This document shows positions 3,733 to 59,853 of a DNA stretch of 64,000 nucleotides, in pieces. The stretch lies in assembly GCA_000004695.1 (NCBI GenBank), contig CM000150.2:3520001-3584000 (forward strand). Reading direction: 5' to 3'. The stretch's first letter is position 1. Each line of letters starts with the position of its first letter. Made by a program: the position numbers and the translations under genes. The stretch comes from Dictyostelium discoideum (Eukaryota). The notes beneath the pieces are model-generated. The model saw only the letters and a program-made list of their open reading frames with translations, was not told the DNA's origin and ran no database searches.

Positions 3733-4099
3733 ATAAAATAAAAGTGTTAGAATTAGTACTCTATTTTTTTATTATTAAATATTATTAATGAAACTATACT
3801 TTTTTGTTGTAACTCTGGTTTTGCATTTGGAAAACTTTGATCGAAAGTAACAATCTTTGGAACTAAATCGTTATAATTTAAGTGGCCAATAAGTTGCTTG
3901 ACCTCTTTTTGATTTGGATCTACAATCCAACCATGAACCAATTTAATATTTAAATAATCAAAAATTTGGCATGGTTCAGTCTTTTCAAATCCTTGAATAC
4001 TGTCAAAGTATATATTTACAATTAAACCCTTCTCTAAACTTGGTAAAACATTTTTATTATAATCTTCTAATATTTCTAATACATCTTGATTCTAAGGAA

Positions 4100-4224: not shown

Positions 4225-4869
4225 ATATACATACTTCTTTATAAAGGCTTTTAGCATGTTTCATAATTAAATCACCAAGTTTTTTAATTGTAACAAATTG
4301 AATATCAGGATCTAAATAAATTTTTTGAGAGAGTAATAAAACATTTGCAATTGAAATCAATGGACATGGTCCATTCTCATTTTGAAGGATAATTGAAACT
4401 TCTTTCTTAAGGTAAGTGATTCTCTTTACTCTATATCTATTTTCAGTTGGTCCAATTGGTTCGTCATCGATAAGTTGAACACTTAATTTAAATACCAATG
4501 ACTCGTAATCTTTGCCATTATCCCAATATGATGCACCTTCGTCACCTTCTATATGGAACCATAAATTATTTTCATAAACTCCAATCACTTTTTATTATTT
4601 TAATTATTTTAATTAAAAAAATAAAAAAATAAAAAAATAAAAAAATTAAAAGAAAAAAAAAAAAAAAAAAAAATGAAGTTAGTAATGACATAACATTTTT
4701 TAATAAACATTAACACTATAATAAAATTGATGTAATTACCTGTTCCAGCACCTTTTGGTGTCATTACTCTTGATCCTGCAAAAAAACCATACCTTTCACA
4801 TGAGGGTCTTGAAACATCAAAATCGATCAATTTTCCATCTTTTGATTTATATTGAAAAGTATCTGCCAT
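3265..4869 (-). CDS. MINDY (FAM63/DUF544) K48-type deubiquitinase; 4 exons complement(4740..4869, 4235..4587, 3800..4091, 3265..3677)
   Basis: Four minus-strand ORF-track segments join with GT...AG introns and consistent phases. The catalytic motif QNENGPCPLISIANVLLL matches the MINDY-1 cysteine motif. Confidence 0.75.
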
Positions 4870-4946
4870 AATTTAATATATCTGTTTATTATTGTATTAA
4901 AAAGTTGTTGTTGTGTAGTGGTGGGGATGAGACAGGGGTTGTGTGG

Positions 4947-4979
<33 letters not shown>

Positions 4980-5132
4980 AAAAAAAAAAAAAAAAAAAAA
5001 ATAATAAATTTTTTAAAATAACAAATAAAAAAATAAAAAAAGTTGAATGAGTTTTCTCTAAATTTAAATTTGGTGATATATAAAGGGAATATTATTATTA
5101 TTAATCTTTATATTTTTGAGTATCCAATTTTG

Positions 5133-5179
<47 letters not shown>

Positions 5180-5817
5180 AAAAAATTAAAAAATTAAAAA
5201 ATTAAAAAAAAAAGTTTTTTTAAATTAAAAATTTAAAAAAAAAAATAAAATAAAAAAAAATTAAAAAAAAATTTTTGTCAACAAATTGAAACTATAATTT
5301 TAATAAAAAAAAAAAAAAAAATTGATATGGGTTATTAAAATCCAATTTTTAAAATTGATCCTGTTTGAGGAATAATTAAAAAATTGGAAGTTCACCAAAT
5401 TAATATGTCACAAATAGAAAAAATAAAAAATTAATAAAAAAAAAAAAATAAAATAAAAATAAAAATAAAAAAAATGGAAAAAAAAAAAAAAAAAATTTAA
5501 AATTTTTTTTTATTTTTTTTTTTTTTTTTTTTAATATTTTTGTCAACTTCATCAAAAAATTTTTTAAATTAAATTTTTTTTTTTTTTATTTTTTATTTTT
5601 TATTTTTTTTTTTTTTTCATAAAATATTTGTAGTTAATTAAATAACATATATAAATTTATTAAACTTAGATTAATTAGGTGTAATAGTTTATAATAGTAA
5701 CAATATATAAAAAATCACACTTGTAAATAATAATAATAAATAAATCAATCAATCAATCAATCAATCAAAAAACACTTTTAATATTTAAAAGTAGCACATA
5801 TATATATATACTCAAAA

Positions 5818-6079
5818 ATGTCGATTATGGCTTATAATGGTGGTGCTTGCATCGTAATGGTTGGAAAGAATTGTGTTGCAATTGCATCAGATTTAAGATT
5901 TGGTATTCAACAACAAACTATTTCAAATGATTTCCCAAAAGTTTATAGAATTAATGATAAATGTTTTGTTGGTATTTCTGGTTTAGTCACTGATGCACAA
6001 ACTTTGTATGTATTCAATAAATAATAAATAATAATAATAATAATAATAATAATAGTTTATTAAATGAATAAAATAACTA

Positions 6080-6124
<45 letters not shown>

Positions 6125-6839
6125 TATAATAATTATAATTATTATTATTTATTTTTTTATATATAGATATCAAAAACTTGTATTTAGACATAACTTATAT
6201 AAACTTAGAGAAGAGAGAGATATGTCACCAAGAGTTGTTTCAAATTTACTCACAAATATGTTATATGAAAAAAGATTTGGACCATACTTTACTGAACCTT
6301 TAATTTGTGGTTTGGAAGGTCCAGATAATACACCTTTCATTAGTGGTATGGATCTCATTGGTGCTAGCGTTGCAACTGATGATTTTTTAGTTGTTGGTAC
6401 TATGACTCCTGCAATGTATGGTGTTTGTGAAACTTTATACAAAAAAGATATGGTATGTTATTTTTTTATTTTTTTATTTTATTCTCAAAAATAAAATTCA
6501 ATAATGTATCGCGCGAGATTAAACTAACAATCATCATTTTTTTTATTTTATTTTTTTTATTTTTAGAATGAAGATGATCTTTTTGAAACTATTTCACAAT
6601 GTATGTTAGCAAGTTTAGATAGAGATGCTCTTTCTGGTTGGGGTGCCATTGTTCATGTAATGTAAAGTATTTTAGTTTATTAAATTATATTTTGTTTATT
6701 CTTATGTTGCCATTGCTTAAACCAATATTAATTATTTTTATTTTTTTATTTATTCTATTTTATAAAAAAAAAAAAAAAAAAAAAAAAAAGTACTCCAACT
6801 CAAGTTATCACAAAGAAATTATTAGGTCGTCAAGATTAA
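5818..6839 (+). CDS. psmB3: proteasome subunit beta type-3 (PSMB3); 4 exons 5818..6005, 6167..6452, 6567..6661, 6791..6839
   Basis: [34 protein letters not shown]...[13 protein letters not shown]...[28 protein letters not shown] matches PSMB3 almost residue for residue. Phases are consistent across the three introns. The third donor is GTAAAG, which is non-canonical. Confidence 0.85.
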
Positions 6840-7141
6840 ACAAAACAAATACTAAAAATAAAAATAAAAAGAATAAAAAAAAAATTAAAAAATAAAAAAA
6901 AAAAATAAAAAAAAAAAATTTATTTTTAAAATACAAAAAAAAAAAAAAAAAAAAAAAAAACAAAACAAAAAAGAAATGATTGAGTCTACAAACACATACA
7001 CCCTTTGAAATAATTTTTCATACTTTTTTTTTGTAATTTTATTTTATTTTATTTTATTTTTTTTTCTATTGATTTTTCAACACACCAAATTTTTTTTTTT
7101 TTTTTTTTATTACACACAATAAACAAGCTTAACAAATAAAA

Positions 7142-8263
<1,122 letters not shown>

Positions 8264-8358
8264 AAATAAAAAAAAATAAATAAAAAAAATAAAAAAAATA
8301 AAAAATTAAAAGTAATTTATTTAATTATTGTTTATAATAATGATTAATTAAAATATTA

Positions 8359-9764
8359 TTATTTTTTTAATTTGAATGTGATTTTAGGTTTATCGTTTCT
8401 ATTACCACTGCTATTCGGATTTGTGCTAGTTGTTGTATTATTATTGTTATTATTGTCGTTGCTACTATTTTGTTTTAAAACTTTATTTACAGATGTGGTT
8501 GTTGTTGTTGTTGTTGTTGATGATGTGTGATCAACAGTTGAATTTTGTTTCATTGTATCATATAATTCTTTAAATATTGTTGGATTCTTTTCTTCCAAAG
8601 CTATCATTTTCTGTTCAATTAATTTAACACGTTGGTAGATGTCAATGGGTACGGGTGGTACAACCAATTTTAAATGATTCTCTAATATTGATAATCTATC
8701 ATCAATGAAGGGCTGCTGAATGGTAGATGATGAAATATTATCCAATGGGCCCGTTAAATTATAGGTTTTGGTTATTTTCATTTTAGATGGTGGGACAGCT
8801 GAACATCTTGATGTGTTATTATTATTATTTGCATCACTACTGCCACTGCTATTATTATTACTACCAGCAGCATTAACACCATTACTACTATTTTCAGAAT
8901 CATCAATAAATTCAACGATATTGTATTTACCATTTTCTAACTTCTTTGAGGTGGTAAATGTTTTAACACGTTTTTCAATATCTTCTTTTGGTGCTGTAAC
9001 TTGAACTATCTCGCTATGTATTGTAGGTATATCGAATTTAGGTTCCTCTAATACCTTTTTAAACCTTTTTATTCTATATGCATCTTTATTATTTTTATTA
9101 TTTACAATACTATCTTTTGAATTAATTTTATGATATAGCGACTTTTTTTTTTTTTTAAAAAAAAAATTAAGTATTAATAATATAATTATTTATTTGGATT
9201 ATTTATTTATTTAACTATTTTACATACAACTGTTTCTGATAAAAATGTTTGTGTATTTTTTACATATTCATTATCAATATTTAAAGTTTGATTTATTGAT
9301 ATGGTTTTATTATTACTATTGTTTTTGCTTTCTTTATTATTTTTATCATCAATTTGATTTGAAATAATTAAATTTATGTCTTCATTTAAAAGTTGAATTA
9401 ATTCTTTATTTACATTTATCTAAAAAAAATTGAGAAATGGAATAAAAAATTAAAATAAAAATTTAAAAAAAAAAAAATGAAAAAAAAAAAATTAAAATTA
9501 ATTTTTAGTTTTTGTGAAATTTCTAAAATCGGAAAAAAAAAAAATAAAATAAAAAAATGAAATAAAAAAAAAAAAACTTACTCTATTTAGATATTTAATT
9601 AATGAATCTTTTTGTGATAATAATAGTGATAGTTTAATTTCTTTATTTAATTGAACTTCTGTAAGAAATGCTTCGCTATTTTTGGGTGCAATAGGTGGGT
9701 CAACTATATCAATATCAACATCTATATCATCTTCATCTTCAAAATATTCATCATCACTTCCCAT
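8359..9764 (-). CDS. hypothetical protein, acidic N-terminus and S/T/N-rich C-terminus; 3 exons complement(9582..9764, 9228..9419, 8359..9141)
   Basis: Donor GTAAGT and acceptor TTTTTTTTAG, phase 0, with an open frame across the joins. Contains RLSILENHLKLVVPPVPIDIYQRVKLIEQKMIALEE. No confident family assignment. Confidence 0.5.
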
Positions 9765-10129
9765 TATTTTATTATTATTTAAATGTAGAAACCTTTTTTT
9801 AATTTTTTGTGTGTTGAAATAAAATGAAAAATGAAAAAATAAAAAAAATAAAAAAAAAATAAAAAAATTAAAAAAAATAAAAAATAAAAAAAATAAAAAA
9901 TAAAAATAAAAAATATAAATATTATTAAATATTTTAATAATAAAAGAGTCTGAAAATATCTTATTTTTATTTTTTATTTTTATTATTATTATTTATTTTT
10001 TTATTACTATAATTATAAAAAAAAAAAAAAAAATTTCTTTTTATTTTTCTCTTTTCTTAACACTTTTGAACCTGACCATTTTTATTTTTAATTTTTTTTT
10101 TTTTTTTTTTTTTTTCAATTTTTTTTTTT

Positions 10130-14467: not shown

Positions 14468-17400
14468 ATGAAAAATTTAATATTAATATTTTTTATTTTT
14501 TTATTTATTTCAAATGGTAAGTTTTTTTTTATTTTTTTTATTTTTAGAATTAAAAATTAACTATTATTATTCATTTCTTTTATTTTTTTTTTTTTTTTTT
14601 CCAATTTCCAATTTTTTCAATTATTTTTTAATTAACACTTTTTTTTTTTTTTTTTTTTTTTTCTTATTCTTTAAAAATAAAAAGTATATTCATATGTATC
14701 AACATGTAATGGACCTGATTCATATACAGCAAATTTAAAACCATGGAGTTATGGAAGTAGTTGGATTTCAGGTAAAATTCCAGTAACTGGAGATAAAGTA
14801 GAAATTCCATCAGGATATAGTATATTATTAGATGTATCAACACCAAGATTAACCCAAATTTGGATTCAAAGTGGTGGTCAATTAGTTATTAGTTCAAAAC
14901 ATGGACCATTGGAAATTATAACCGATGGTATATTAATTGAAGGTAGAATGGATGTTGGTGATGAAAATTGTAAATTTAATGAATCATTTACAGTTACACT
15001 TACTGGTATTGAAGGACAAGGATATATTGAAAAAAAGAGTGATATGCTCCAAAAGTATATTGGTGTTTTACCAGGTGGTTCATTGGAAGTTCATGGTTAT
15101 CTTAGTTATCCAATTCCAACATGGACTAAATTAAATAAAACAATCACTGGTGGAAGTACAATGATTATTAATGTTGCCGATGACGTTAGTATGTGGCCAG
15201 TTGGCTCAACAATTGTATTGGGTAGTACCGATTTTGATATGTACCAATCTGAAGAGGTTATAACTCTTTCATGTCCAGAATGTTCGGCTTATCAATTGAA
15301 AATCAATGGTTCAAAATATTATCATTTTGGTGCAATCACTTTTGGCGTCGATGAAAGGGCCGAAGTGGGTCTATTAACTAAAAATATTGTAGTACGTGGT
15401 GAAATGCAGCCAACTTGTAACGGTTCAAGAATTTGCGATTATTTCAATTTCGATGGGTTTGGTGGACATATTAAATTTGTTAAAGGCTTTGCAAATGGTC
15501 ATCTCGAGGGTATGGAAGTCTACAATATGGGTCAAACCTATAATGTTGGTTATTATCCAATTCATTTTCATATGTGTGGTGATGTAGATACAGGTTCCTA
15601 TGCAAATTGGCCAAGCTATGTAAAAGATGTTTCAATTCATCATACAAAGTCAAGATGTTTAACAATTCATGGTACAAGTGGTTTGGTTGTAGTGAATAAC
15701 TTTGCCTATGATCATTATGGACATTGTTATTTCTTTGAGGACGGTAGTGAACAAAGAAATTATTTAGATTCAAATGTTGGTTTAGTAACTCGTTATGGTT
15801 ACCTTTTACCATCAGATAGAGATGGAGATGTTTGTATCTTTGCCAATCCAACCGATTACAATGGAAATGCAATTGATATTGGAACATGTCAAGCGGTGGC
15901 CACTTTTTGGATTACAAACCCAAATAATTATTTAAAGAATAACGTTGCTGGTGGTTCTGCAAATACTGGTTTTTGGTTCCTTTTCCCCGAGGCAGTAAGT
16001 GGCATTTCATCTTATATTTCCGCTTATGACAATGTTTATCCACCATATATTCCAATTGGTAGTTTTGTAAATAACAAGGCCCATTCAAATGTTTTGCAAG
16101 GAATGAACATTGATCAATCTCATCAGATTCAACAACAAAGTGCAGATTATCCAAATCCTCATCTTTCAATGACCTATGGTCGTTATAAACCAAGAGTTGA
16201 CCCAACCAATCCATCTTCAGCACGTGCAACCTCTTTGATTTATCAATTTACAGCTTATAAAAATAAATGGAGAGGTTTATGGGCTAGAGGAGGTGATCTT
16301 GTTTTCCATTCATGTATTTTCTCAGAGAATGCAATCGGTGCAACTTTAGCAGCAGAGGGTGTAATGCAAGCAGATATGGGTTCAACTCAACAATGTATTG
16401 GTTGTACTTTTATTTTGGAAACAGAGAATGTTGGTCAAGCAACAAATGGTTTAAATACCTATGGTGGTGTTACACTTCCAGCCTACTATCAATTCAGTCA
16501 AAGAGGTATTGAAATTTATGATGGTCCTGTTATACTTCAATATTGTACCTTTATTGGATTCAATACCGATGGATCAAGAAATACAAGTGCAATTGGTTGG
16601 TTCCTTTATGATGATTGGATTTTCTCTACCACAAATCAATTGATTGGTTCAACTTTTATTAATTCAAATCTACGTGTATTAAATATACCATCCAATTATG
16701 ATGGTGCTAAACAACAAATTTTCCTTGATGCCGATGGTTCAGTCACTGGTACCAAGAATTCCTATGTTGTCCCAAGTGTTCCATACTTTTATTCAAGTAA
16801 AAGTGTTATAAATACCGCATGGAATATGTCAATCTCCACAGAGAAATTTGCATCACTCTATGTCTATAATAAAGATGTCGCAGGTAGTAATATACCAGAT
16901 TCAGCAGGAATTATCATGGTAAGAGATGAATATTCATATTATCGTCATATCCTTCAAGGCGTACCAAATGGATCACCAAGAAATACATTTTTACCAACAG
17001 TTATGCTTGGAAAGAGTTATACAATGCATTTCCCACATGCAACACCACCACATCTTCAAGTTCAATTAACAAATTTCGATCAAAGTGATCAAGTTATCGT
17101 TGGTATTTGTTATCCAACTTGGGGTGTCACTTTTGAAATCACTAAAAATGTTATTATCAACAATTGGAATGCTGTCGTTGAATCAGTGAAAATGGTTGAC
17201 TCATTGGATCAAGTTAAAAATGACACCAAAGGTTTATCAGCATACTATGATTCAGTGACAGGTTTATTATTCTTAAATGCAATTCAAGAAAGAACTCGTC
17301 AATGGAATTATTTTTGTCCAGATGTTGGTTGTGAAACTTTTGATATCCAAATAACTGGTTTGGGTGTAAACACAAATACTGGTTATTGTTCAAGCTCTTA

Positions 17401-46695: not shown

Positions 46696-47418
46696 TTAGA
46701 AAAGTGAACAAATTAATTTTTTTAAATTCTATTAAAAAATGTAACAGAAGTGGTATACTCTAGAAAGACTAATAATTATTTATATTTTATTTGTATTTAA
46801 TTAATATTTATATTTTATTTATTTATTTAATACTATATTTAATTTTTTTATCTTTAATTTAATTTATTTTAATTTAATTTAATATTTATTTTATTTATTT
46901 TAATAATATATTTATTTTTTTAATTTAATTATAACATATTTTCTTTAAGAGTGATAAGATAATCAAACTCAAATAAATTTTCTTTTTCATTTTATACTAA
47001 ATAAAATGAGTTGACATAATATACTAAAAGAGAATAATTAAAATAATATATCAAATTTGTAAATAATTAATTTATATTAATTATTGAAAACACTAAAAAA
47101 ATAATATATATAGAAACAATTGATTATAATAATAAAATGAATAATACTAAATAATAATTATAGTAAAAAATAACAACTGGTTTAAGTGCAAAAAAAGAAA
47201 ATTCCAAAAGATTAACAAAAACCTTTTTTTTTTTTAATAACATCACTCAATTTGAGTGTGTTCTAGGAGAGTTTATTTGGTTTTTTTTTTTTTTTTTTTT
47301 TTTTTTTTCTTTTTTTCTTGTTATTCTTATTTTTTTTTATTATTATTATTATTATATTATTATTATTATTATTATATTATTATTATTATTATATTATTAT
47401 TATTATTATTATTGTTAT

Positions 47419-47456
<38 letters not shown>

Positions 47457-47461
<5 letters not shown>

Positions 47462-50400
47462 AGTAGTTGGTGTTATATGAGCAGTATGGTATGAAGTGTT
47501 CCGGGATGTTTATGGTCATGAGTTTCGAGTTCCAGTTGTGGCTGAATTTTTCGAGTCTTCTTTTTATTGATGCGGTCCGATTGATTGACTCTCGGTTATC
47601 AGTGCATCTTAGTTCTTGACGTAGTTGTTTTTCTACTATCTTTCTTGTTCTATCCCATTCGGCATCTCTCGCTTTTTTGATTTTATGAATTATTTGGTTC
47701 TCTGTTATTATTGTAGTGTTATCGTTGAATTTTATTTGATTTCTTCTGTACCATATCGATTCCATAATGGCTCCTATCAGATTTGATGAGAATGGTGTGA
47801 GTAGTTTTCCGAGAACTTTTTCGCTCCATGGACCGTGGTAAGTGTTGTTGGAGTCTTTACAGACCTTTTGATAGATTGAGTCGATATTCTGTTTTATTGA
47901 TTTGCATTCGAAGAAGATGTGCATAGACGATTCTTCTTCTTTACATGAGTGGCAATTCTCCCCATGGTGTTTTGGAAGTGCCTTGAGTAGATATCTCCAT
48001 GCTAAGTCTCTTCCTTTGATAGTTGTGATTGATCTGGCTTCTCTGAATGGTAGAATTGGGTGATTAATGTTCTTTTGAATCAGTTTTTGACCTGTTGTTG
48101 GCTGGTGTTTGTTCCATCCCTTGTATTTGATATCCATCATGTTTCTATAGATTACTTTTAATTTTTGTTTGTTTTCGTATTTGGGTTTGACTTGGTTTAG
48201 TTTGAGAGTTATTCGCTCTCTTGGGTGGTGCAACAACTTCCAGGCTTTCCAGCATTTGATGTGAATCCTTGATAGTGAGTTTTCTTTTTCCGACTTCCAG
48301 ACTTCCATATGTGGAGGGCAGTTCTGGTCGTCTTTTTCTCTGAGGTATTGTTCGTATATCCATGCTTTCTGGGCATTGGATCTGGTTGCCATATTCCAGA
48401 GTTCCAGGCCTCCAATTTCATAGTCTCTTCTGCTCCTTTCTTTTGAGATAGCCCACCTGTCCCCTTTGAATAACATGTTGGCATTAACGTTCTCCAGTTT
48501 CTTTATGTCATTTATTTCGTTGATGTATAGTTGGAATGTTAGTTGGGACAGCAGGTATGATTTGAGGATTGTGATTCTACCTTTTAGCGTTGATGACACG
48601 CTCGAATAACATTTTGTGAGGTTTTCCAGTTTGTTCACCGTATCATCTACTTTGCTTATTACACCTTTGCGGTTGAAGAAAAAGCCAAGATATCTTTCTT
48701 CTTCTTTCGCCCCAATTGTCTTATATTTGGTCTTTATCTTTGGGTTTTTAGTGATGCACACACATTTATTATCGTTTATTTTTGCTGCTGTGGCTTGGCA
48801 AAATTTTATAACTTTCATATCCATTTTATCTGCGTCATCTATGTTACTGGCTAGTGTGACTGTGTCGTCTGCATATTGTCCAATCTTCATCGAATTGTTC
48901 TGATTGAGTTTTATGCCTATTATGGTATTGTCTTTTCTTATTGATGTTGATAAGCATTCACATACTATAGCGAAGAGAGTTGGTGAAATTGGGTCGCCCT
49001 GTTTTGTACCTCTTCCTGCTCTGAAGGATTCAGAGAGTTGTCCATTTACCATGACCCTTATGTTGGTGTTCGTTAACATGCTTAGTATTGTGTTTGTTAT
49101 TTTCCGAGGGAACTTTAGATGGTTTAGAGTCCTTATTAACGCTTTATGAGATATTGAATCGAAGGCTTTTTCGAAGTCATAAAAGGTGATTATCGTGTTT
49201 CTATCACTTTTTTCCATTGCTAAATCCAAAGCTATAATGTTGTTGTGGAGTAGCCTTCCTGGTATAAAACCGTTCTGGTACTTTGAGATTATGTTTGGCA
49301 GGATTTTTAGTATTCTATTGTTGATTATTTTTGAGTAGATTTTGTAGTCTACGTTGAGTAACGTTATTGGTCTTCTGTTTGAGATTTCCAAGACATCCCC
49401 TTTACCTTTGTATATTGATGTAAGGATACCGTTCTTGAATTCTGTTGGAATTTCATTGTTTAAAAAGAAGTTGAATAGTTCTGTGAGGATTGGAATTAGT
49501 TTGTGTTGGTGGATTTTATAGAATGAAGATGTTATTCCATCTTCTCCTGGTGATTTACCTTCTGCTATCTTTTCTATTGCTAGCTTAACCTCATATTCTT
49601 CGATTCTGTCTTCCATCTCTGTTAATTTTTTTTTATCTATTGGTGGGTTCCAGGTGCTTAGAAGTTCTGTATGTGTTTCTTGGTCGCATTCTTTCTCTTT
49701 GAAGAGTGTCTCGTAATATTTTCTGAAGCAATCTGTTATTTCTTTTTGTTCTGTTTCGATTTCTCCATTGGATGGGTTCTTTATTCTGTGAATCTGGGAG
49801 CTCGAGTCTCTTTTTTTAAGAATAGATGTAAGGAGATTTGATGCTATTTCTTTATTGTTGATGTAGTTGATTGAGCTTTTGATCATTCTGTCTATTCTTT
49901 CTTCTTCTTGAAGTATTGTTATTTCGTTCGATATTGTTTCTTTTTCATATTTGTTTTTTGTTTTTGTGTGTTCATTTGCTAGATTTGATAGCGTTTTTTT
50001 TCTCTCTAGTATTCTTTTCTTTTCTGTTGTAATGCATTGTTTTTTTATTTTTTTTTTGAACTTAATCCAGTATTCCGTTATGTTAATGTTTTTTCTTTTG
50101 GTTTCCTGGTAGTGGTCGATTATTTTTTCTATCTTTTTTATTGTTTTATCTTCTTTAATTATTATTGAGTTCATTTTCCATAGGGGTGATTTGTATATTT
50201 TTGTGAAATTTGGTATTTTGAAATCCATCACTACTATGTTATGGTCTGATTTGTTTATTTTATCTATTATCTTGTACGAGTGATTGAGTTGGTGCATCTT
50301 TGTTGATAAGAATGTTCTATCGATTAGTTTATCTTTGAAGGTTGTTTTAGTTGTTGAATTTGGTAGTATTTCGGTGAGTCCTACTTCCATCATTAGGAAT

Positions 50401-50888
50401 TCTATTGTTTCATTTTCTGTGAATTTTCTCTTATCGGATGATCCATCTTTGAACTTGATTTTTGCATATTTGTTGATGTTAAAGTCACCAGTAACTATGT
50501 CTGCCTGTTCTAGATCTTCAAGGGAAATATTGTTTGAAAACCATCCTTTTCTTCTGTCATATGAGGCTGGTGCATAGATGCAAATTATGTTGATTTCCAT
50601 ATTGTTTAGAATTGCAGTAAATTTTAAGATTCTGCCTTCTTTTTCTTCCAAGTTTTTAATTTCTATTTGTTCTAGGTGATTTATTGCCATTACTCCTTTT
50701 CCTCTTGCTTCTTTTCCTTTTCCTCCTGTTGAGTAATGGTTTTTGATTTGCGCTAGATTTTGATCCTTTTTTAGATTTGTTTCTGTTAGTATTGATATAT
50801 CAGGTTTTATTAGGTTAATTGTATTTTTTGTCTGATTCATGCTTTTGATTGTTGAGCAACCTTGGCAATTCCAGGTCATTATTTTTAT

Positions 50889-50891
<3 letters not shown>
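47457..50891 (-). CDS. non-LTR retrotransposon ORF2: AP endonuclease + reverse transcriptase + C-terminal Cys/His motif
   Basis: The N-terminus MIKIMTWNCQGC...ILTETNL is an exo-endo-phosphatase. The RT blocks are RPITLLNVDYKIYSKII, FYDFEKAFDSISH and QYADDTVTLA. The HHGENCHSCKEEESSMHIFFEC motif follows. Confidence 0.85.
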
Positions 50892-50974
<83 letters not shown>

Positions 50975-50980
<6 letters not shown>

Positions 50981-51119
50981 AAATGAGACAGATGGAAGTA
51001 TGTCTTGGAGTACTTTGGGCAATTTGTCTCTTAGTGCTGCTTCCATTAGATCTGATTCTTCCTTTGTTATTTTAGTTGGAGTTTTGTAAGGTGTTGATAT
51101 TTCTTGGTGATTAGTTGTT
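50975..51119 (-). pseudogene. C-terminal 47 codons of TRE5-like ORF1, separated from the rest of ORF1 by the nested LTR element
   Basis: With the nested element and one TSD copy removed, 58117..59341 reads in frame into 51119..50975 and ends at TAA (rc of 50975-50977). Confidence 0.7.
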
Positions 51120-51509
51120 TGTTAGAGACTCAAAACTAAATTAATTTAAAGTTAGTATGAGCTCAACAACGTAACAAATTCGCGCATCTCCATGTAAAAA
51201 TATTTCATTTAATTTTTATTTTTATTTTTTAATTTTTTATTTTTTCAGTCAAAAAATAAAAAATTAAATTAAAAAAAATTAAATTAAATTAAAATTTAAA
51301 AAAATAATAAAAATTCTGATTTTTCGGTTTAGTTGGAATAACGCCCTTACTTTTAATTATCTCTTTTATGTATGTTTACTTTTATGATATTAGTCTTTCA
51401 CTCTTTCTATCCTTCATATTAAAAAACATTACTTTAAAGATTGGACTGTTTGATAAAAGATTGAACAAATGTGACAATGGATTGAAGATTAGTGTGAGTG
51501 ACTTTTACA
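51120..51509 (+). repeat. 5' LTR (390 bp)
   Basis: Identical to 57727..58116 over its full length by eye. It starts TGTTAGAG and ends TTTTACA. Confidence 0.85.
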
Positions 51510-51811
51510 CTTTTTTTTTTCTAATTTTAACATAAAACAAATACATTAAAACAAATAATTAGATACAATCCTTATATTTCGTATACAATGACACCTCATG
51601 ATGAAGAAGTCGACTCTTCAGATTAGAGGAATAACAGTAGTATTTAAAACAAAATAAAAATGCATTACAATGGCCCTTCTGTTTGCAAGATTAACGCTGT
51701 ACTGCTTAGGCGGTACAACGACACTTCCTACTCACATTGTAAACATGCATCTTTTATAAAGTAATATAAAACAAGATTGTATCAATTAATTTAATAATAA
51801 TGCTCAAATAC

Positions 51812-52085
51812 AAAGACACCACAATATAAATTATTAGTGGAATAACAGTTAAACAAAGACACCACAATATAAATTATTAGTGGAATAACAGTTAAATAAA
51901 GACACCACAATATAAATTATTAGTGGAATAACAGTTAAATAAAGACACCACAATATAAATTATTAGTGGAATAACAGTTATATTGATGCATTGTTATAAT
52001 TAAAATAATTTAAGATAATATTTATTATCAATTAAATAATATAAAGACACCACAATAAAAATATATTAGTGGAATAACAGTTAAC
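51812..52085 (+). repeat. tandem ~43-bp repeat (aaagacaccacaatataaattattagtggaataacagttaaa) x4 plus one degenerate copy in the LTR-element leader
   Basis: Seen directly, between the 5' LTR and the gag start. Confidence 0.9.
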
Positions 52086-52235
52086 ATATATTAATACTTA
52101 TATTTAATTATTTAATTAAAAATTAAATTAAATTAAATTAAATAAATTAAATTAAATTATATAATTAAATTATGTAAATTAAATAAAAAAATTAAATTAT
52201 AAAATTAAATTATATTTAATAAATTTTATATATAA

Positions 52236-53399
52236 TTGTTGGTGAAAGTCATGTCATCAACTACTACTCATTCAAAGAAAGCCATCCGTAAAGCCAAAGT
52301 GTCTTCCACCGCCAAACGTGCCGCTGAAGTGACAACTGCCTCCGATGATGCTATTACTGTTCAAGTAAAATCAAAAAAGACTCTTCGTCCCACTGAAGTT
52401 GATGATGAAATTTATTCAACTGAAAGCACTGATGTATCCGACGTCGAAGTCAGAGAGAAAGTGCCAAAGAAATCAAAGACCAATTCGATTGAAGCTAAAA
52501 CCATTGACGCTTTAAAAAATGCTGCCACTGCTGTCATCTTCATGAATCTCTTTACCATCCACTGCTCCCAGAATGGTGTTGAACCAACCTTGAAGACCAT
52601 TATGGACAATGGTGCTGCATCAAATGAATTATTTCAATTGCTTCAACCTACCCACAATGAATCAGTTAAGAACAACGATAAAATTGAAGGTGAAACATTA
52701 AAGAAGCTAATCCACCGTAACTTTAGATCCAAGACTTTGGTTCCATTCAAAACTGACTACGAAGCTGCCAACACTAAAGTAGTCGAAGCTATTAACCATC
52801 GTAACTGCTACTCAGCCCAAGATGTTATAAAAAACATCGAAGCCATTATGAGTTACCACAATGTAATTAATCCGGTGTATCTCATCCATGGTACTGCTGA
52901 AGTTCAATTAGAGTATCTAAGATCAATTTTAGATAATAATATCCTTGCTTTGTTAAAGATGGTCGTACCAGACTGGTTACAAACTGATGTTGCAATCAAA
53001 CTCAACACTCAAACCGATATCACCGAGTGTCGTGAAGCCATCACCGAGTTGGTTCTTAACAATGCTGATAAGTTCTCGAGAAGAAGACCTTCCGATTCTG
53101 CATCGAATACTGATGAGAAGTTTCTATTAAAAAAGAATCATGCTACTCCAAATCATAACTCTCATAACAGGAATTCCTTTGATGCTCAAGCTGATAAGAT
53201 TAGAGCTGCAATATTACCCGAAATAAGAAAAGACTCTAAGGTAGACCTCAAAAAGATAAGAAGCAGTTTCATCGTTTACCGTCAAAACAAAGGCTACTGT
53301 CTCAATTGTGGTAAATCAAATCACTCCACATCTACATGTAGAATTGATCCGGTCGATGCCAAAGCCAATCCAGGTCCATCAGCCAAAAAGCAACAATGA
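52236..53399 (+). CDS. retrotransposon Gag with CCHC zinc knuckle (CLNCGKSNHSTSTC)
   Basis: The ORF-track product is basic near its C-terminus and carries a CX2CX4HX4C knuckle. It ends at TGA 53397-53399. Confidence 0.8.
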   Translation: MLVKVMSSTTTHSKKAIRKAKVSSTAKRAAEVTTASDDAITVQVKSKKTLRPTEVDDEIYSTESTDVSDVEVREKVPKKSKTNSIEAKTIDALKNAATAVIFMNLFTIHCSQNGVEPTLKTIMDNGAASNELFQLLQPTHNESVKNNDKIEGETLKKLIHRNFRSKTLVPFKTDYEAANTKVVEAINHRNCYSAQDVIKNIEAIMSYHNVINPVYLIHGTAEVQLEYLRSILDNNILALLKMVVPDWLQTDVAIKLNTQTDITECREAITELVLNNADKFSRRRPSDSASNTDEKFLLKKNHATPNHNSHNRNSFDAQADKIRAAILPEIRKDSKVDLKKIRSSFIVYRQNKGYCLNCGKSNHSTSTCRIDPVDAKANPGPSAKKQQ

Positions 53400-56300
53400 C
53401 TCGATGAAGGTGATGAGTCCAAGTCAAAGATTTTAAATAAAAATTATAAAATTTCACAATATCATCACCTTGAGGATAATGATTACCCAGTGAACAAAGA
53501 TTCACTTTATACTCTTAACTCTTTTTATAATCAAAACATTGTTAAACAGTTACATCAACAAAGCCAGCAACATGATGTTCATAAAAACATCAACAAACTT
53601 AAAGAATACGTCAAAGACTCATATGGTATAAAACTAGTTCCTGATACAACCGTTCCAATTCCAAAAGCTGTTGAATCAGAGATGAAGTATAAACCACAGA
53701 AGATTGAATTTAATACTCCAACAGAGTTAACAAATGTTCAAGATAAAAACTATACTGTTAACATATTCAATCGTCCAAAGATATTAAATTCTAGTAAAGA
53801 ATTAATTAATGATGAAGAAGATGAATTGCTTTACACAATTAAATTCGATAAAGAAACAAACAAACCAATCATCTCATTATTACATAGTACTGGTACAAGT
53901 GATACTGCTCTCATTCCGACTCTAAAATGTTTAATCGTTCCAAACAGAGAAAACATGGATAAACCCAAGATTATAATTAACTCTCATTCCAAAGAAAAAC
54001 AATTCAAATTAATTCTCGATACTGGAAGTAATGTTAGTTTAATCAATAAGAGGTTGATTTCAAAAGATATGAAGAACCACGTTCACAAAACGAAAGCCAA
54101 GATTAACTTCCCGCTACTAGACGTCAAAGAAGAGTTTGTTGAACAAATCAATATACAAGTTAACAATGAAATTCATAACTTCTTTATTATAGAATTGGAT
54201 ATCATTGATGTACTTTTCGGTAATGATATCCTTAAGGACTCTATCATTAACCAAAAAGATAAAATAATCAAGTTGAATAACAGTACATACAAAATTAATT
54301 ATCAACAGTCGAATCAATTACATTGTAATGTAAAAGCTCCAAGAAAACATGTTACCGTATCCAATGATAATCAGTCACAGTCACATAATCTACTAGATGA
54401 TGATGAAGATATCAAAGAACAAGTTACAAAGTTTGTTGAAAGCATCCCATCACAACTTTGTGATATACTGGTTAAAACTAATCCAGAAGAAGAAGAGATA
54501 CAAGCAGTACGTGATTTCATTAATGATTCATTCGAAGATGTTATAGTAGATAAACTTCCTGATATTCCAGATCAGATTAACAATTCCAGAAGAGGTAATA
54601 TCATACATAATATCATAATAAAGAAAGATCAAGATGTTGAACCAACAAAGAAACAAATCTATTATTCAACAGATGATCATAAGAGACATGTCGAAGAAAT
54701 GGTTATCAAATTTATAGATTTAGGTATTATCAAAAGATCAGAATCAAATTACTCATCTCCAATCATGTTATTAAAGAAGAGAGATTCATGGTGTGTAGTC
54801 CACGACTATCGTCAACTAAATAAAGTCACTGTTAGAGACGATCATCCATTCACTCCGGTTGATAGTCTTTTAAATCAATGTAAAGATTCAAAGCTTTTCT
54901 CAAAGTTTGACATGATTATGGGTTATTTCCAAGTGTTAATTAATCCAGAACACGCAAAGTACACCGCTTTCATTACACATATTGGTAAATTTGAATATAC
55001 TAGAATGCCACAAGGTTTAGTCAACTCTCCATCCACATTCGCCAGATTGATGGTCGAAATATTTGGAAAAATCAAAAGTTTATTACAATACTTTGATGAT
55101 CTTTTGGTTCATTCAAAACTCGACTACATGGTACATTTCATTGAAATAATTAGAATGCTTCTATATTGTAGAAAGTACCTATTATTCATTTCAAGAGAAA
55201 AGAGTGAAATGTTAAAGACTGAAGTAGATTTCCTTGGTTTCCACATTCATAAAGATGGTATATCTCCAAGAGCTGCAAAGGTTAGAGCTATCTCTGAGTT
55301 ACCTGAACCAAGAAACGCCAAAGAAGCTGAAGCTGCATTAGGTCTTTTTGGATTCTTCAGGAGACACATTGAAAATTACGCTGAAAAAACCTATCACCTT
55401 TCCAAAGAATCAAAAGGAAAAAACAAGAAAACACTTTCTGATGAATCACTCAAAGAATTCAATAATCTAAAGAAAGAGTTTGAAGGTGAAAATATTGTCG
55501 CTATTCCAATTGAACAAGATAACTCCATACCAATAGATATCGAAAAGGTTAAAGCATCAACAGACATGCCAATCCATTCAGATAATAATAATCTAAACAA
55601 TGGTAGTTTTCACTTGTATTGTGATGTTAGTGATAAAGCATTATCAGGTGTATTATATCAAATTCAAGGTAATAAATTCAAAGTCATTTGGTTTCACAGT
55701 AGAAAACTTACTGATACTCAAAAGAGGTACAGCATAGGTGATAGAGAGTTCCTTTCAATCATTGATTCTCTAAAGAAGTTTCAACATTTATTAATTGGTA
55801 AAAAGGTTTCAATCTACACTGATCACCAAAATCTTACATATATTATCAATAAGTCAAACGATAAACCGTTCACAAAGAGACAAGATAATTATATGAAATA
55901 TATTAAAGAATTTGATTATGAATTAAGACATATAAGTGGTAAAAAGAATGGTATAGCTGATTTTTTATCTCGTAAATATGATAATTTCCAATGGGATGAA
56001 TCGTTTTTAAATAAAATTAAGGAAGAACAAATCAATTCTCAATGGCTATTAGAGATGAAAAAGAATCCAAATTTATGCATTGAAGAAATTAATGATATCT
56101 GTTACCTTAGTGAAGATGGGTTCAAGAAATTAATCATCATAGATAAAGAAACTATTCATACCGTCATTAGAGAATATCACGATACCAAATATAGTGGTCA
56201 TCACGCTTTAGATATCACATACAATAATATAAGACAAGATTACTATTTCAAAGAAATGTTTTCTATTATCAAGAGGTACATAAAGTCTTGTGCAACATGT

Positions 56301-57683
56301 CAATTGAACATTAACCGTAAAGATAATGGTATACTCCAAAGTTTAGAAATTCCCTTTGAAGTTTGGAGAGATATATCAATCGATTTCTTATCGCTACCAA
56401 AAACAATGTATGCAATAAACGGATTTACAGTTGAAGTCGATCAAGTTTGTGTCATTGTTTGTAGATTATCTAAAATGGTTCATATAGTTCCATGTCATAA
56501 GACAATAGATGCCCAACATACCGCTCAATTATTGTTGAATCATGTGTTCAGACTCCATGGTTATCCAAGAACAATCGTCTCCGATAGAGATCCAAGATTC
56601 CTTTCAGAAATATGGGAGAGATGGGCAAAGACGATGGATTCTAAACTCAAGATGACTGTGGCACACAGAGCACAAGCTGATGGTCAAACTGAAAGAATGA
56701 ATAGAGAAATTATTAGAATATTAACTAAAGCCTCAACAGAGTATGGGGAGAATTGGTCAGATATCATTCCACTTATTGAATTTGCAATGAACTCATCAAT
56801 GAGCAAGTCTACAAAGATGTCACCATTCCAAATCGTTTATGGATTCAATCCACCAACTCCCGTTAATCATTTCAATTCATTAACAAAGACTCGTATACCA
56901 ATGAGCAACATCAAAAAGATTGTCCGTGATAATATACTAGATGCTCAAATCAATGCTCAAAAGTATTACAACCGAGGTCGTGGTGATGTTATCTTCGTAG
57001 TCGGAGAAAAGGTGATGGTTAAAAGAAAATTCTTCCAAACTAATCTTTCAAAAGATCTAATCTCTCACAAACTTGAATCCAAGAATTGTGGACCATTCAT
57101 AATCACTGCCGTTCATGGTAATAATGTAACACTCGATTTAGTAGGTTATCCAAAGAAACACAATGTGTTCAACAAAGATCAAATCGTAAAACTATACGAG
57201 GACAGTGAGTGGTTAAGAGAAGAGATATCGATGCCGGAACCTGAGGAGATGGACGAAGCAAGTTACGAAGTTGAAAGTATTCTCAATCACGATAAAGTCA
57301 AAAAGATGTACCTAGTGAAGTTCAAAGGTTACCCAGAACCTGAATGGATCAAAGAAGTCGATACAGACTGTGAAGAGTTAGTCAGAGAGTATTGGAATAA
57401 CGTGCAGAAGAAACAATTGAACTCAAGAAGAGAAAGAGAGAATGTAACTACAGAAGCCGTTGAGCCAATTGTGTCACCTCCACTCTCCCAAGAAGTTCAA
57501 AGTTCTCAAACATTGCAACCAATTACTCCAAGACAACAAAACTCCATCTCAAATCAAAGAAACCAATCAAAGAAAAGAAAATCAAGAAATCAAAATACTT
57601 CAAGTGATGATGATGAACTTGATCTTAGTTTACAAATTAAAACAACTAGATCAGGAAGAAAAGTTACACCCAAGAGTTTATAG
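53400..57683 (+). CDS. retrotransposon Pol (aspartic protease LILDTGSNVSLIN, RT, RNase H, integrase HHCC + DDE, C-terminal chromodomain), same frame as gag behind a TGA
   Basis: RT motifs YFDDLLVHS; integrase motifs HHALDITYNNIRQDYYFKEMFSIIKRYIKSCATCQ and VSDRDPRFLSEIWERW; chromodomain YEVESILNHDKVKKMYLVKFKGYPEPEWIKE. No ATG follows the TGA. The first alternative start is GTG at 53490. Confidence 0.8.
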   Translation, partial: LDEGDESKSKILNKNYKISQYHHLEDNDYPVNKDSLYTLNSFYNQNIVKQLHQQSQQHDVHKNINKLKEYVKDSYGIKLVPDTTVPIPKAVESEMKYKPQKIEFNTPTELTNVQDKNYTVNIFNRPKILNSSKELINDEEDELLYTIKFDKETNKPIISLLHSTGTSDTALIPTLKCLIVPNRENMDKPKIIINSHSKEKQFKLILDTGSNVSLINKRLISKDMKNHVHKTKAKINFPLLDVKEEFVEQINIQVNNEIHNFFIIELDIIDVLFGNDILKDSIINQKDKIIKLNNSTYKINYQQSNQLHCNVKAPRKHVTVSNDNQSQSHNLLDDDEDIKEQVTKFVESIPSQLCDILVKTNPEEEEIQAVRDFINDSFEDVIVDKLPDIPDQINNSRRGNIIHNIIIKKDQDVEPTKKQIYYSTDDHKRHVEEMVIKFIDLGIIKRSESNYSSPIMLLKKRDSWCVVHDYRQLNKVTVRDDHPFTPVDSLLNQCKDSKLFSKFDMIMGYFQVLINPEHAKYTAFITHIGKFEYTRMPQGLVNSPSTFARLMVEIFGKIKSLLQYFDDLLVHSKLDYMVHFIEIIRMLLYCRKYLLFISREKSEMLKTEVDFLGFHIHKDGISPRAAKVRAISELPEPRNAKEAEAALGLFGFFRRHIENYAEKTYHLSKESKGKNKKTLSDESLKEFNNLKKEFEGENIVAIPIEQDNSIPIDIEKVKASTDMPIHSDNNNLNNGSFHLYCDVSDKALSGVLYQIQGNKFKVIWFHSRKLTDTQKRYSIGDREFLSIIDSLKKFQHLLIGKKVSIYTDHQNLTYIINKSNDKPFTKRQDNYMKYIKEFDYELRHISGKKNGIADFLSRKYDNFQWDESFLNKIKEEQINSQWLLEMKKNPNLCIEEINDICYLSEDGFKKLIIIDKETIHTVIREYHDTKYSGHHALDITYNNIRQDYYFKEMFSIIKRYIKSCATCQLNINRKDNGILQSLEIPFEVWRDISIDFLSLPKTMYAINGFTVEVDQVCVIVCRLSKMVHIVPCHKTIDAQHTAQLLLNHVFRLHGYPRTIVSDRDPRFLSEIWERWAKTMDSKLKMTVAHRAQADGQTERMNREIIRILTKASTEYGENWSDIIPLIEFAMNSSMSKSTKMSPFQIVYGFNPPTPVNHFNSLTKTRIPMSNIKKIVRDNILDAQINAQKYYNRGRGDVIFVVGEKVMVKRKFFQTNLSKDLISHKLESKNCGPFIITAVHGNNVTLDLVGYPKKHNVFNKDQIVKLYEDSEWLREEISMPEPEEMDEASYEVESILNHDKVKKMYLVKFKGYPEPEWIKEVDTDCEELVREYWNNVQKKQLNSRRERENVTTEAVEPIVSPPLSQEVQSSQTLQPITPRQQNSISNQRNQSKKRKSRNQNTSSDDDELDLSLQIKTTRSGRKVTPKSL

Positions 57684-57707
57684 TCCACCTCTGAGCCATA
57701 GCTAGCC

Positions 57708-57726
57708 TAAAGAAGGAAGGGGAAGG
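57708..57726 (+). promoter_or_regulatory. polypurine tract (AAAGAAGGAAGGGGAAGG) abutting the 3' LTR
   Basis: Seen directly, immediately 5' of the LTR start at 57727. Confidence 0.8.
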
Positions 57727-58116
57727 TGTTAGAGACTCAAAACTAAATTAATTTAAAGTTAGTATGAGCTCAACAACGTAACAAATTCGCGCATCTCCAT
57801 GTAAAAATATTTCATTTAATTTTTATTTTTATTTTTTAATTTTTTATTTTTTCAGTCAAAAAATAAAAAATTAAATTAAAAAAAATTAAATTAAATTAAA
57901 ATTTAAAAAAATAATAAAAATTCTGATTTTTCGGTTTAGTTGGAATAACGCCCTTACTTTTAATTATCTCTTTTATGTATGTTTACTTTTATGATATTAG
58001 TCTTTCACTCTTTCTATCCTTCATATTAAAAAACATTACTTTAAAGATTGGACTGTTTGATAAAAGATTGAACAAATGTGACAATGGATTGAAGATTAGT
58101 GTGAGTGACTTTTACA
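57727..58116 (+). repeat. 3' LTR (390 bp)
   Basis: A copy of 51120..51509. Confidence 0.85.
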
Positions 58117-59341
58117 TTGTTGGGTTTGGAGATGAGTTGGATCTTTTTCTTTTTACTGTCTCTGGGGTTGCTGGAGATTCTGGATTTTGGATAGGTGACA
58201 TTGTTTGTCTTTTTTTGATTGAGGCTAACCTTGGGGTTTCCTTCTTTTTTTGGTTATTTATTTTTTCTTCAAAAATTCTGTTCTCTTCTTCATTTTCGAA
58301 CATCTTTCTTACCACTTCTAATGCTTCTTCATCTTCAGTTAACTCCATTTTCCTTTTCTCTTTGCTGTCAACACTATATGTTACTGTTATTGGTGGGACA
58401 CGAAGTACTTTTCTCTTTTCAATATTGTTTATTGTGTTTGTCGTTTCTGTCGTTGTGGTTGTTGTAGTTGCTCTAATTGTTGTGGGTTTTTTATTTTCAA
58501 TTTCGTTTTCCTTTACTTTTTCGTTTTTGCTCTTGTCTTTGATGTTGTCATTATTGATTTCTTTATTATTTTCTTTTCTGTTTTCTATTTTGTTTTTGTT
58601 GTTATTTTTTGATTCGCTAGTGTTTTTATGATTGGATTCTTCTTTTGATTTTATGTTTATTCTTGTGTTTTCCTTTATCTCGGGATTTGGTAGTTCCGTG
58701 ATTTTTGAATTTTCTGAGATTTCGTCTTCGATTTCCTTATTTGTTTTTCTTTGATTTTTTGTTTCTTCTGTTGTAGTGAGGAATAGTATTGTTATGTGTT
58801 TACAATGTATTAGCTGGTCTTTGTGCTCTGGACTGATAATTGAGTTGAATGAGTGTATTATCAGGTTTTCACCTAAATTATCTAATTTGATTATTTCCAG
58901 TCCTTCTTCATGCAATGTTTTTTCTACTATGTCCATTGATTTTTCCCAGTTGAATGTTTTGAAGATCTTTTTTGGTTTTATTATTGCTCTGTGAACTCCT
59001 TTTAGTACTCCGTTGAAAACGTTAGAGTACTTGATTACTTGAGTTCTGCAGTCAGTGAGGATTTTGAATTTATTCTTACTTATTATTATCTTATCATCTC
59101 CTTGTAAATGAATTTCCAATTCTGCTTTTAAGTTGTTGGAAATCTCATCTGGGATATTGATCATGAATTTATATTGTTTTAGTTCAATTTGAGTGTGGTA
59201 TATTGCTTCGCTTATTTTATCAAGTGTTCTGTACGTATTTTTTAAATATTTGAACTTTGTTCTGAGTTCATTTGATTTCTTGATTTTATCTGCCAATGTT
59301 TCTGTTGATTCTGTCATTATTGTATTTGCCAATTTATTCAT
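58117..59341 (-). CDS. TRE5-like ORF1 (N-terminal 409 codons); truncated by the LTR-element insertion so the present frame runs 2 codons into LTR/TSD sequence before a stop
   Basis: The track ORF 58112..59341 is K/E/N/T-rich, typical of non-LTR ORF1. Its last two codons are encoded by the LTR end and TSD. Confidence 0.7.
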
Positions 59342-59419
59342 TTCTTTTTTTTTCTTTAAAATCTTTATTCGACTTTAAAAATTTAAAATTCTGGAAATTC
59401 CCTGAAAGAATGTTTTCGG

Positions 59420-59469
<50 letters not shown>

Positions 59470-59472
<3 letters not shown>

Positions 59473-59523
59473 TCTTTTTTTTATATGAAAAATGAAATAA
59501 TCAAATAAAAAAAGTGTTGTTGT
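59470..59523. repeat. 54-bp direct repeat copy 1 (aagtcttttttttatatgaaaaatgaaataatcaaataaaaaaagtgttgttgtt); copy 2 at 59669..59722
   Basis: Two identical copies 199 bp apart in the 5' region of the TRE5-like element (A-module-like duplication). Confidence 0.85.
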
Positions 59524-59770
59524 TGATGTTTTTTCTCTTACTGATTATTTTTTCCTTTTTTTTTCAATTTTGCTTCGCAAAATTTTCAAAAAAAAGAAAA
59601 AAATAAATTACAATAAAATAAAGAAATAAAGTAGTTTACTCTAAGTGTATTTTATTTTATTTTTTTTAAGTCTTTTTTTTATATGAAAAATGAAATAATC
59701 AAATAAAAAAAGTGTTGTTGTTCTCACAAAAACCGGATAAAGCAAATTTAAGTTGTATCTCATCAAAAGT

Positions 59771-59843
59771 GCCTGGATGGCTCAGTAGGCAGAGCGAGCG
59801 GCTGTTAACCGCTAGGTCCATGGTTCGATCCCATGTCTAGGCG
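59771..59843 (+). tRNA. tRNA-Asn (anticodon GTT), 73 nt
   Basis: Acceptor stem GCCTGGA/TCTAGGC with one G-U pair. D-arm GCTCAGTAGGCAGAGC. Anticodon stem-loop AGCGG-CTGTTAA-CCGCT with U33 and GTT at positions 34-36. The T-arm CATGG-TTCGATC-CCATG is the B box. A T-run follows. Confidence 0.9.
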
Positions 59844-59853
59844 ATTCTTTTTA
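59844..59853 (+). terminator. Pol III terminator T-run (ATTCTTTTT) after the tRNA
   Basis: Seen directly. Confidence 0.6.

Follow-up and report, generated by a model that had tools for sequence, protein, structure and literature searches.

The question raised by the 64,000-nucleotide (64-kb) stretch of Dictyostelium discoideum AX4 chromosome 1 analyzed here (contig CM000150.2, positions 3,520,001 to 3,584,000; hereafter, the window) is how one retrotransposon came to lie inside another beside a tRNA gene, which of the two arrived first, and what the target looked like before the second arrival. The compound locus consists of Skipper-1, a retrotransposon with long terminal repeats (LTRs), within open reading frame 1 (ORF1) of TRE5-B, a non-LTR retrotransposon that adjoins a tRNA-Asn gene. 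It was concluded that the locus very probably arose through two successive retrotranspositions at one tRNA gene, first that of TRE5-B and then that of Skipper-1; the order of events, both junctions, the pre-insertion sequence and the identity of Skipper-1 were established. A preliminary description, made from the letters of the window, had read the locus as a chromovirus lying within ORF1 of a TRE5-type non-LTR element that is associated with tRNA-Asn, and all of its structural claims hold.

The two LTRs of the insert (51120–51509 and 57727–58116, + strand), which had been described as identical, agreed at 390 of 390 positions in a base-by-base comparison and in a repeat scan; their termini are TG...CA, and the identity ends exactly at both LTR edges, not one base further. 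The flanking TTGTT copies reported earlier were read directly in the sequence: the left copy of this 5-bp target-site duplication (TSD) occupies 51115–51119, and the right copy occupies 58117–58121, directly outside the 3′ LTR. In-silico deletion of 51120–58121, i.e., of the insert together with one TTGTT, restored a minus-strand ORF1 that runs from an ATG at 59341 to a TAA at 50975–50977 and comprises 454 codons and a stop, where about 455 codons had been estimated. The duplicated bases lie within codons 407–409, which leaves approximately 47 codons past the break, as originally proposed. An ORF scan and the excision placed the 5′ part of ORF1 (codons 1 to ~408) at 58117–59341 on the minus strand, and the severed 3′ end (the last ~47 codons and the TAA; 50975–51119, minus strand) was in frame after excision. 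In its present state, ORF1 encodes 409 aa, runs into the LTR and meets a stop at 58112.

The protein encoded by the restored ORF1 showed 100% identity, along its entire length, to the intact 454-aa protein of AX4 gene DDB_G0293632 (P0001). Four loci encoding this protein in a second assembly, GCA_054883475.1 (L001–L004), which represent intact copies of the host element, were compared with the window as DNA. The empty site was present in all four and read ...CAAACCC AACAA CTAATCACC..., with a single AACAA (TTGTT on the opposite strand) and with both window flanks matched exactly; thus, the ORF1 continuous across the TTGTT site that the preliminary description had anticipated was found in four intact TRE5-B copies. 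Because the two flanks, and with them the 5′ part and the severed 3′ end of ORF1, are contiguous in these copies, no later recombination has taken place. The same junction is visible in the annotation of AX4: gene model DDB_G0270638 (429 aa) is identical to the broken ORF1 of the window (58112–59341) up to ...SSPNPT, and its C-terminal tail of 21 residues is not TRE5-B ORF1 sequence, the point of departure being the Skipper junction. The product of ORF2 of the same host element is an exact match to XP_646282.1 (DDB_G0270950). Both of these AX4 gene models, DDB_G0270638 and DDB_G0270950, represent ORFs of a transposon.

TRE5-B was the first to arrive, since it is the element whose ORF1 is interrupted. 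In the sibling lineage D. cf. discoideum (L008), the tRNA-Asn orthologue lies between the same flanking genes and carries neither TRE5-B nor Skipper; since this site is bare, both elements are insertions in the D. discoideum lineage. Orthologues of the flanking gene encoding 255 aa were found only in D. cf. discoideum, D. citrinum and D. firmibasis, and none was found in wild D. discoideum isolates. A locus of a wild isolate (L006, found from P0155) was considered as an empty allele and was rejected, being a different TRE5-B-like copy at a tRNA-Ser locus.

Integration of TRE5 elements takes place at the transcription complexes of RNA polymerase III and proceeds by target-primed reverse transcription (PMC3159450). 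At the locus studied, TRE5-B would first have integrated in this manner 48 bp upstream of the tRNA-Asn(GUU) gene, with its 5′ end toward the tRNA; its traces are an oligo(A) tail and a TSD of 9 bp. Skipper integrates through its integrase; to our knowledge, the integration mechanism of the Skipper-1 family has not been experimentally tested to date. Skipper-1, a Ty3/gypsy chromovirus, then entered codons 407–409 of ORF1, presumably via this enzyme, in the orientation opposite to that of the host, duplicating TTGTT, and may have been drawn to the site by transposon chromatin via its chromodomain. By severing the last ~47 codons, it would have deprived a copy with an intact ORF2 of the full-length ORF1 protein, and the insertion thus appears to have disabled a TRE5-B copy that was otherwise open in both ORFs.

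The insert has a total length of 6997 bp, and the Dd-Skipper-1 consensus is 6998 bp with an LTR of 390 bp (Spaller et al. 2016; PMC5006619, Table 1). Directly after the 5′ LTR (51120–51509) stands a polypyrimidine tract, CTTTTTTTTTTCT (51510–51522, + strand), which replaces the tRNA primer-binding site; a polypyrimidine tract with a flanking C in place of a TGG primer-binding site is characteristic of Skipper (PMC5006619). The leader between the 5′ LTR and gag contains a 43-bp tandem repeat with three near-identical and two partial units (51769–52026, + strand; repeat families D7 and D9). The gag and pol frames are both open, as had been stated previously. The gag gene (52251–53399, + strand) encodes 382 aa with the zinc knuckle CLNCGKSNHSTSTC (CX2CX4HX4C), and the same 382-aa product is encoded in the second assembly. 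It ends with a single TGA followed by C, after which the pro-pol frame of 1427 codons (53400–57683, + strand; recognized from Pfam matches and motifs) continues in the same phase as gag. This frame contains, besides protease (DTG), reverse transcriptase (YFDD) and RNase H, the zinc-binding and core domains of integrase, an SH3-like domain and a chromodomain, with Pfam matches to RVT_1, RT_RNaseH, Integrase_H2C2 and rve and a weak match to Chromo. The chromodomain (about 57261–57426, + strand) lies C-terminal to the integrase and aligns to the chromodomains of Swi6 (E = 7e-6) and HP1 (E = 2e-5); the residues at the positions of HP1 Y24/W45/Y48 are Y/F/Y, i.e., the cage is aromatic at all three positions and of the canonical (group I) type. 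A polypurine tract, AAAGAAGGAAGGGGAAGG (57709–57726, + strand), adjoins the 3′ LTR, which was delimited by sequence comparison (57727–58116, + strand).

The pol product shared 99% identity with annotated Skipper pol proteins of AX4 and had three amino acid differences from each of DDB_G0281535 and DDB_G0267356. The Skipper pol gene models omit 11 residues (GNIIHNIIIKK), apparently through a spurious intron. A canonical chromodomain separates Skipper-1 from Skipper-2 (PMC5006619). Accordingly placed by its length, LTR, polypyrimidine tract and canonical chromodomain, the insert, previously called Skipper-like, is a Skipper element and can be refined to Skipper-1 itself. Several points weigh against this assignment or against the competence of the copy. 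The Pfam Chromo match falls under the curated cut-off, and the family name was derived from published descriptions and protein proxies. Two pol substitutions, L436I and R465C (numbering of the post-gag frame), are private to the window copy relative to the two other AX4 copies, and R465C, in the reverse transcriptase, alters an arginine (KKRDSW[R]VVHDYRQLN) that three further Skipper pol proteins of D. discoideum possess; because of this private substitution, the competence of the copy does not follow from its open gag and pol frames. The structurally intact Skipper-1 of the window may belong to a small set of intact copies and, as a structurally complete element on a chromosome arm, is a candidate source copy.

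The intact host-element copies align to the window at 99% identity from 59722 down to 47224/5, and since they cover exactly this span, the host element extends over 47225–59722 and measures 5496 bp once Skipper is removed. The coordinates of the preliminary description were all right except for the 3′ end of the host, which had been set at 47283; the element ends at 47225, and the earlier boundary omitted its last ~58 nt, the A13 tail included. The 9-bp TSD of the host, ACAAAAACC, was found on the left at 47216–47224, where it abuts the oligo(A) tail (T13 on the + strand), and on the right at 59726–59734, where it is preceded by three extra nucleotides, CTC (59723–59725), at the 5′ junction. 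The 3′ untranslated region (UTR) of 232 nt (47225–47456, minus strand) consists of the A13 tail, a unique end of ~45 nt carrying a CACTCAA/TTGAGTG hairpin, two poly(A) runs and an (AAT)n run. ORF2 (47457–50891, minus strand; DDB_G0270950) is intact and encodes 1144 aa with an apurinic/apyrimidinic (AP) endonuclease, a reverse transcriptase (RVT_1, E = 5e-37) and a CCHC zinc finger (CHSCKEEESSMHIFFEC, at residue 980).

ORF1 and ORF2 are separated by a poly(A) spacer of variable length (50892–50974, minus strand); in the second assembly, this spacer has 26 nt fewer. The 5′ UTR (59342–59722, minus strand) contains one full 198-bp module (59525–59722) and the first 73 nt of a second (59452–59524), followed by poly(A). 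The number of these modules (repeat family D8) was thus 1.4 in the window copy and 3–5 in L001–L004 and in a further TRE5-B locus, L009; this variation parallels the A-module promoter repeats of TRE5-A. Internal poly(A) runs of TRE5-B were observed between the ORFs (50892–50974) and in both UTRs (59423–59470, 47282–47320 and 47417–47458), and the inter-ORF and 5′ UTR runs differ in length from those of the second assembly by 26 nt and 8 nt, respectively. The TRE5-B-like element at the tRNA-Ser locus of the wild D. discoideum isolate (L006, 8184–13495) carries two open ORFs, of 468 and 1144 aa, and is only 86–91% identical to the AX4 copies, so that TRE5-B lineages differ substantially among isolates.

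The location of Skipper-1 within TRE5-B may or may not be incidental. Loci were taken by exact Gag identity in GCA_054883475.1 (n = 3), and Skipper insertion sites were examined at six loci in all. Each of the three Skipper-1 copies with the exact Gag of the window lay inside TRE5-B, at differing positions, with its own 5-bp TSD, and both orientations were represented. At the window locus (L011 in the second assembly), the TSD TTGTT corresponds to TRE5-B nt 1602–1606, and the Skipper-1 copy, opposite to the host, has undergone no later disruption. At L012 (537–13127), the TSD is GGAAT (TRE5-B nt 2645–2649), the orientation is that of the host, and Skipper is split by a 5.56-kb element. At L009 (8101–15874), the TSD is GACAG (TRE5-B nt 408–412), the orientation is again that of the host, and the 5′ LTR is split by a 759-bp inverted-repeat element.

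TRE5-B numbers only about 25 copies, and one fully intact TRE5-B was counted in AX4 (PMC5006619). With all of them assumed to be full length, ~25 copies make up at most 0.44% of the 34-Mb genome, and even against TRE sequence alone, which makes up 3.6% of the genome, the probability of two further insertions into TRE5-B was ~0.015. The rarity of the target and the agreement of all three loci speak for a preference of Skipper-1 on chromosome arms for TRE5-B, or for transposon chromatin generally. Against such a preference, the three loci were picked for an identical Gag, which supplies no denominator for the count, three Skipper copies of wild isolates, which are more divergent, did not adjoin TRE5-B (two adjoin DDE transposase genes and one adjoins another gypsy-type integrase gene), and survivorship alone favours insertions within other transposons. 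The preference is therefore regarded as possible, with the chances against it, and the statement that non-centromeric Skipper-1 integrates non-randomly, into TRE5-B or into silenced transposon chromatin at tRNA loci, is offered still more tentatively. If it were true, arm copies would provide a natural read-out of chromodomain-guided integration, and the association with TRE5-B at three of three loci, if upheld genome-wide, would make chromodomain-directed targeting in Dictyostelium accessible to testing.

The elements that disrupt the other two Skipper-1 copies deserve a brief description. The 759-bp element of L009 is present in two copies (8267–9025 and 15910–16668) that are 98% identical, have the terminal inverted repeats CACAGCAAAGAAAAA...TTTTTCTTTGCTGTG and contain tRNA-like fragments; it looks like a miniature inverted-repeat transposable element. 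One copy splits the 5′ LTR of Skipper, and the other is located at an internal TRE5-B deletion (~nt 442 to ~4590). In L012, the 5.56-kb insertion (4353–9914) splits Skipper-1 at nt 3800 and thereby forms a three-layer nest within TRE5-B. It has two minus-strand gene calls (256 and 816 aa), and a repeat scan of it revealed nothing beyond 13-bp tandem repeats near one end.

The second arrival at the window locus had been described as recent. This is reasonable, since a young Skipper-1 insertion fits the identical LTRs, the open frames and the near-identity to other copies, but its age is weakly constrained, as identical LTRs are of little use for dating here. In two other Skipper-1 copies, one later disrupted by the 5.56-kb insertion and the other by the 759-bp inverted-repeat element, the LTR pairs are still identical, and the LTRs of the three Skipper-1 copies agree at all 390 aligned positions, differing only in single 8-bp and 15-bp indels. 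Together with the presence of the insertion in both assemblies, these observations would also suit an insertion that is not particularly recent, the LTR identity of which would stem from a low genome mutation rate or from gene conversion between LTRs. Such an older age is nevertheless rather unlikely: the gag and pol frames are open, pol is only three amino acids away from each of two other copies, and the site in the sibling lineage is without either element.

The family of the host, previously called TRE5-like, must also be considered. The TRE5 type is borne out by the presence of two ORFs, by an ORF2 with AP endonuclease (weak), reverse transcriptase and zinc finger, by the location ~50 bp upstream of a tRNA gene and by the facing 5′ ends. 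The better-known TRE5-A, the abundant active element of D. discoideum, has the same two-ORF layout and lies in the same position and orientation with respect to tRNA genes, and the repeated ~200-bp 5′ module of the host resembles its A-module; on account of this module, TRE5-A was assumed at first and was then rejected by primer matching and ORF1 identity. The endogenous TRE5-A primers Rep-108 and Rep-109 (ORF1), Rep-75 and Rep-176 (ORF2) and Rep-190 had no match in the host at ≤6 mismatches. ORF1 of the host was merely 26% identical to P0167, which was found by an exhaustive HMMER search and represents a TRE5-A-type ORF1 because it carries the primer-encoded peptides DTIIELDNL and SFSPTY; the published identity between ORF1 of TRE5-A and that of TRE5-B is 25% (PMC3159450). 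The TRE5-A layout is AB-ORF1/ORF2-BC, in which a B-module of 290 bp recurs in the 3′ UTR and a C-module of 134–137 bp lies at the 3′ end, and TRE5-B is defined by the absence of the 3′ B-module and of the C-module (PMC3159450, PMC5006619). In a repeat scan, the 3′ B-module and the 134-bp C-module were absent from the 232-nt 3′ UTR of the host, and the 5′ UTR/ORF1 start was not duplicated. The TRE families were reportedly defined in the paper of Glockner et al. (2001). A host of the TRE5-A family is, in view of the unmatched primers, the low ORF1 identity and the different 3′ UTR, very unlikely.

The host is best classified as TRE5-B, because the tests for TRE5-A fail and no full-length form of TRE5-C is present in D. 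discoideum (PMC5006619). This classification was reached by elimination and from published descriptions, and this weighs against it, as do two further points: the Exo_endo_phos match of ORF2 (E = 0.0018) is under the Pfam curated cut-off, and the host measures 5496 bp, compared with 5971 bp in the published TRE5-B consensus. The shortfall may come from the variable number of 198-bp modules and from poly(A) length, other copies carrying two to four more modules.

The relation of both elements to the tRNA gene differs. ARAGORN detected a single tRNA in the 64-kb window, tRNA-Asn(GTT) at 59770–59844 on the + strand; reading the mature ends from the acceptor stem gave 59771–59843 (+ strand) for the tRNA-Asn(GUU) gene, the insertion target of TRE5-B, and the published AsnGUU primer matches exactly at 59796–59819. 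The gene is separated by 48 nt from the 5′ end of TRE5-B, and the two are on opposite strands, head to head. The nearest end of Skipper-1 is 1.65 kb from the tRNA-Asn gene, and because of this distance, Skipper-1 is near the tRNA only via its TRE5-B host; this copy is unlikely to be itself tRNA-targeted. Proximity to a tRNA gene could suggest that the LTR element is Skipper-2 or DGLT-A, relatives that target tRNA genes, and chose the site for the tRNA, such targeting being known for both families (PMC5006619). Skipper-2 was rejected because none of its features, namely, an LTR of 208 bp, a group II chromodomain and a position 8–23 bp downstream of tRNA genes, fits the insert. DGLT-A was likewise rejected, having a single ORF, an LTR of 265 bp, a TGG primer-binding site 2 bp past the LTR, no chromodomain and a position 13–33 bp upstream of tRNA genes. 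With an LTR of 390 bp, two ORFs, a polypyrimidine tract instead of the TGG site, three aromatic cage positions and a location 1.65 kb upstream of the tRNA gene, the insert makes such an identity extremely improbable, and the assignment to Skipper-1 stands.

The repeats of the Sanger-era AX4 assembly were difficult to resolve (PMC2665215), and yet there is next to no chance that misassembly of a repeat-rich region produced the nesting or the perfect LTR identity. Such an artefact is ruled out because the separate, megabase-contig assembly GCA_054883475.1 has the identical compound locus (L005, L007 and L011), with four homopolymer-length changes and three single-nucleotide polymorphisms over 15.9 kb and 0 differences within Skipper, and both junctions are precise, with the TSD present.

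Thus, the nested insertion of Skipper-1 in TRE5-B is real and cleanly resolved, but it is ordinary, since the families, their structures and their targets have been published and the locus lies within the annotated AX4 reference. Its value is mainly that it validates the reconstruction of a nested insertion from raw sequence. It also serves as a clean worked example of transposons stacking at "safe" sites in a gene-dense haploid genome, in which TRE5-B uses the tRNA gene and Skipper-1 uses TRE5-B.

Comparison with the known systems places both elements as follows. Skipper-1 of D. discoideum is said to have been described by Leng et al. (1998) as a Ty3/gypsy chromovirus. The window copy belongs to the same length class and shares with known Skipper-1 the 390-bp LTR, the polypyrimidine tract, the gag motif CX2CX4HX4C, the order protease–reverse transcriptase–RNase H–integrase and the HP1-like chromodomain; there is no structural difference, but most copies belong to centromeric clusters, and this one sits within TRE5-B on a chromosome arm. 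Skipper outside centromeres is known and accounts for 0.9% of non-centromeric sequence (PMC2665215). With known TRE5-B, to which it is likened by description, the host shares the position ~50 bp upstream of a tRNA gene, the head-to-head arrangement, the two ORFs, the lack of 3′ B- and C-modules and the ~25% ORF1 identity to TRE5-A; it differs in its length (5496 rather than 5971 bp) and in the interruption of ORF1. With TRE5-A (DRE), it has in common the target site, the orientation, the layout and the repeated ~200-bp 5′ module, whereas the primers fail, ORF1 is 26% identical and the BC-module 3′ end is missing. As in other nests of LTR elements in long interspersed nuclear elements (maize, Drosophila heterochromatin and the centromeric clusters of Dictyostelium), the younger element interrupts the older one, and the TSD together with excision rebuilds the host. 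Compared with those nests, that of the window is a simple, two-layer one in a gene-dense chromosome arm, and for this reason both of its junctions are exact.

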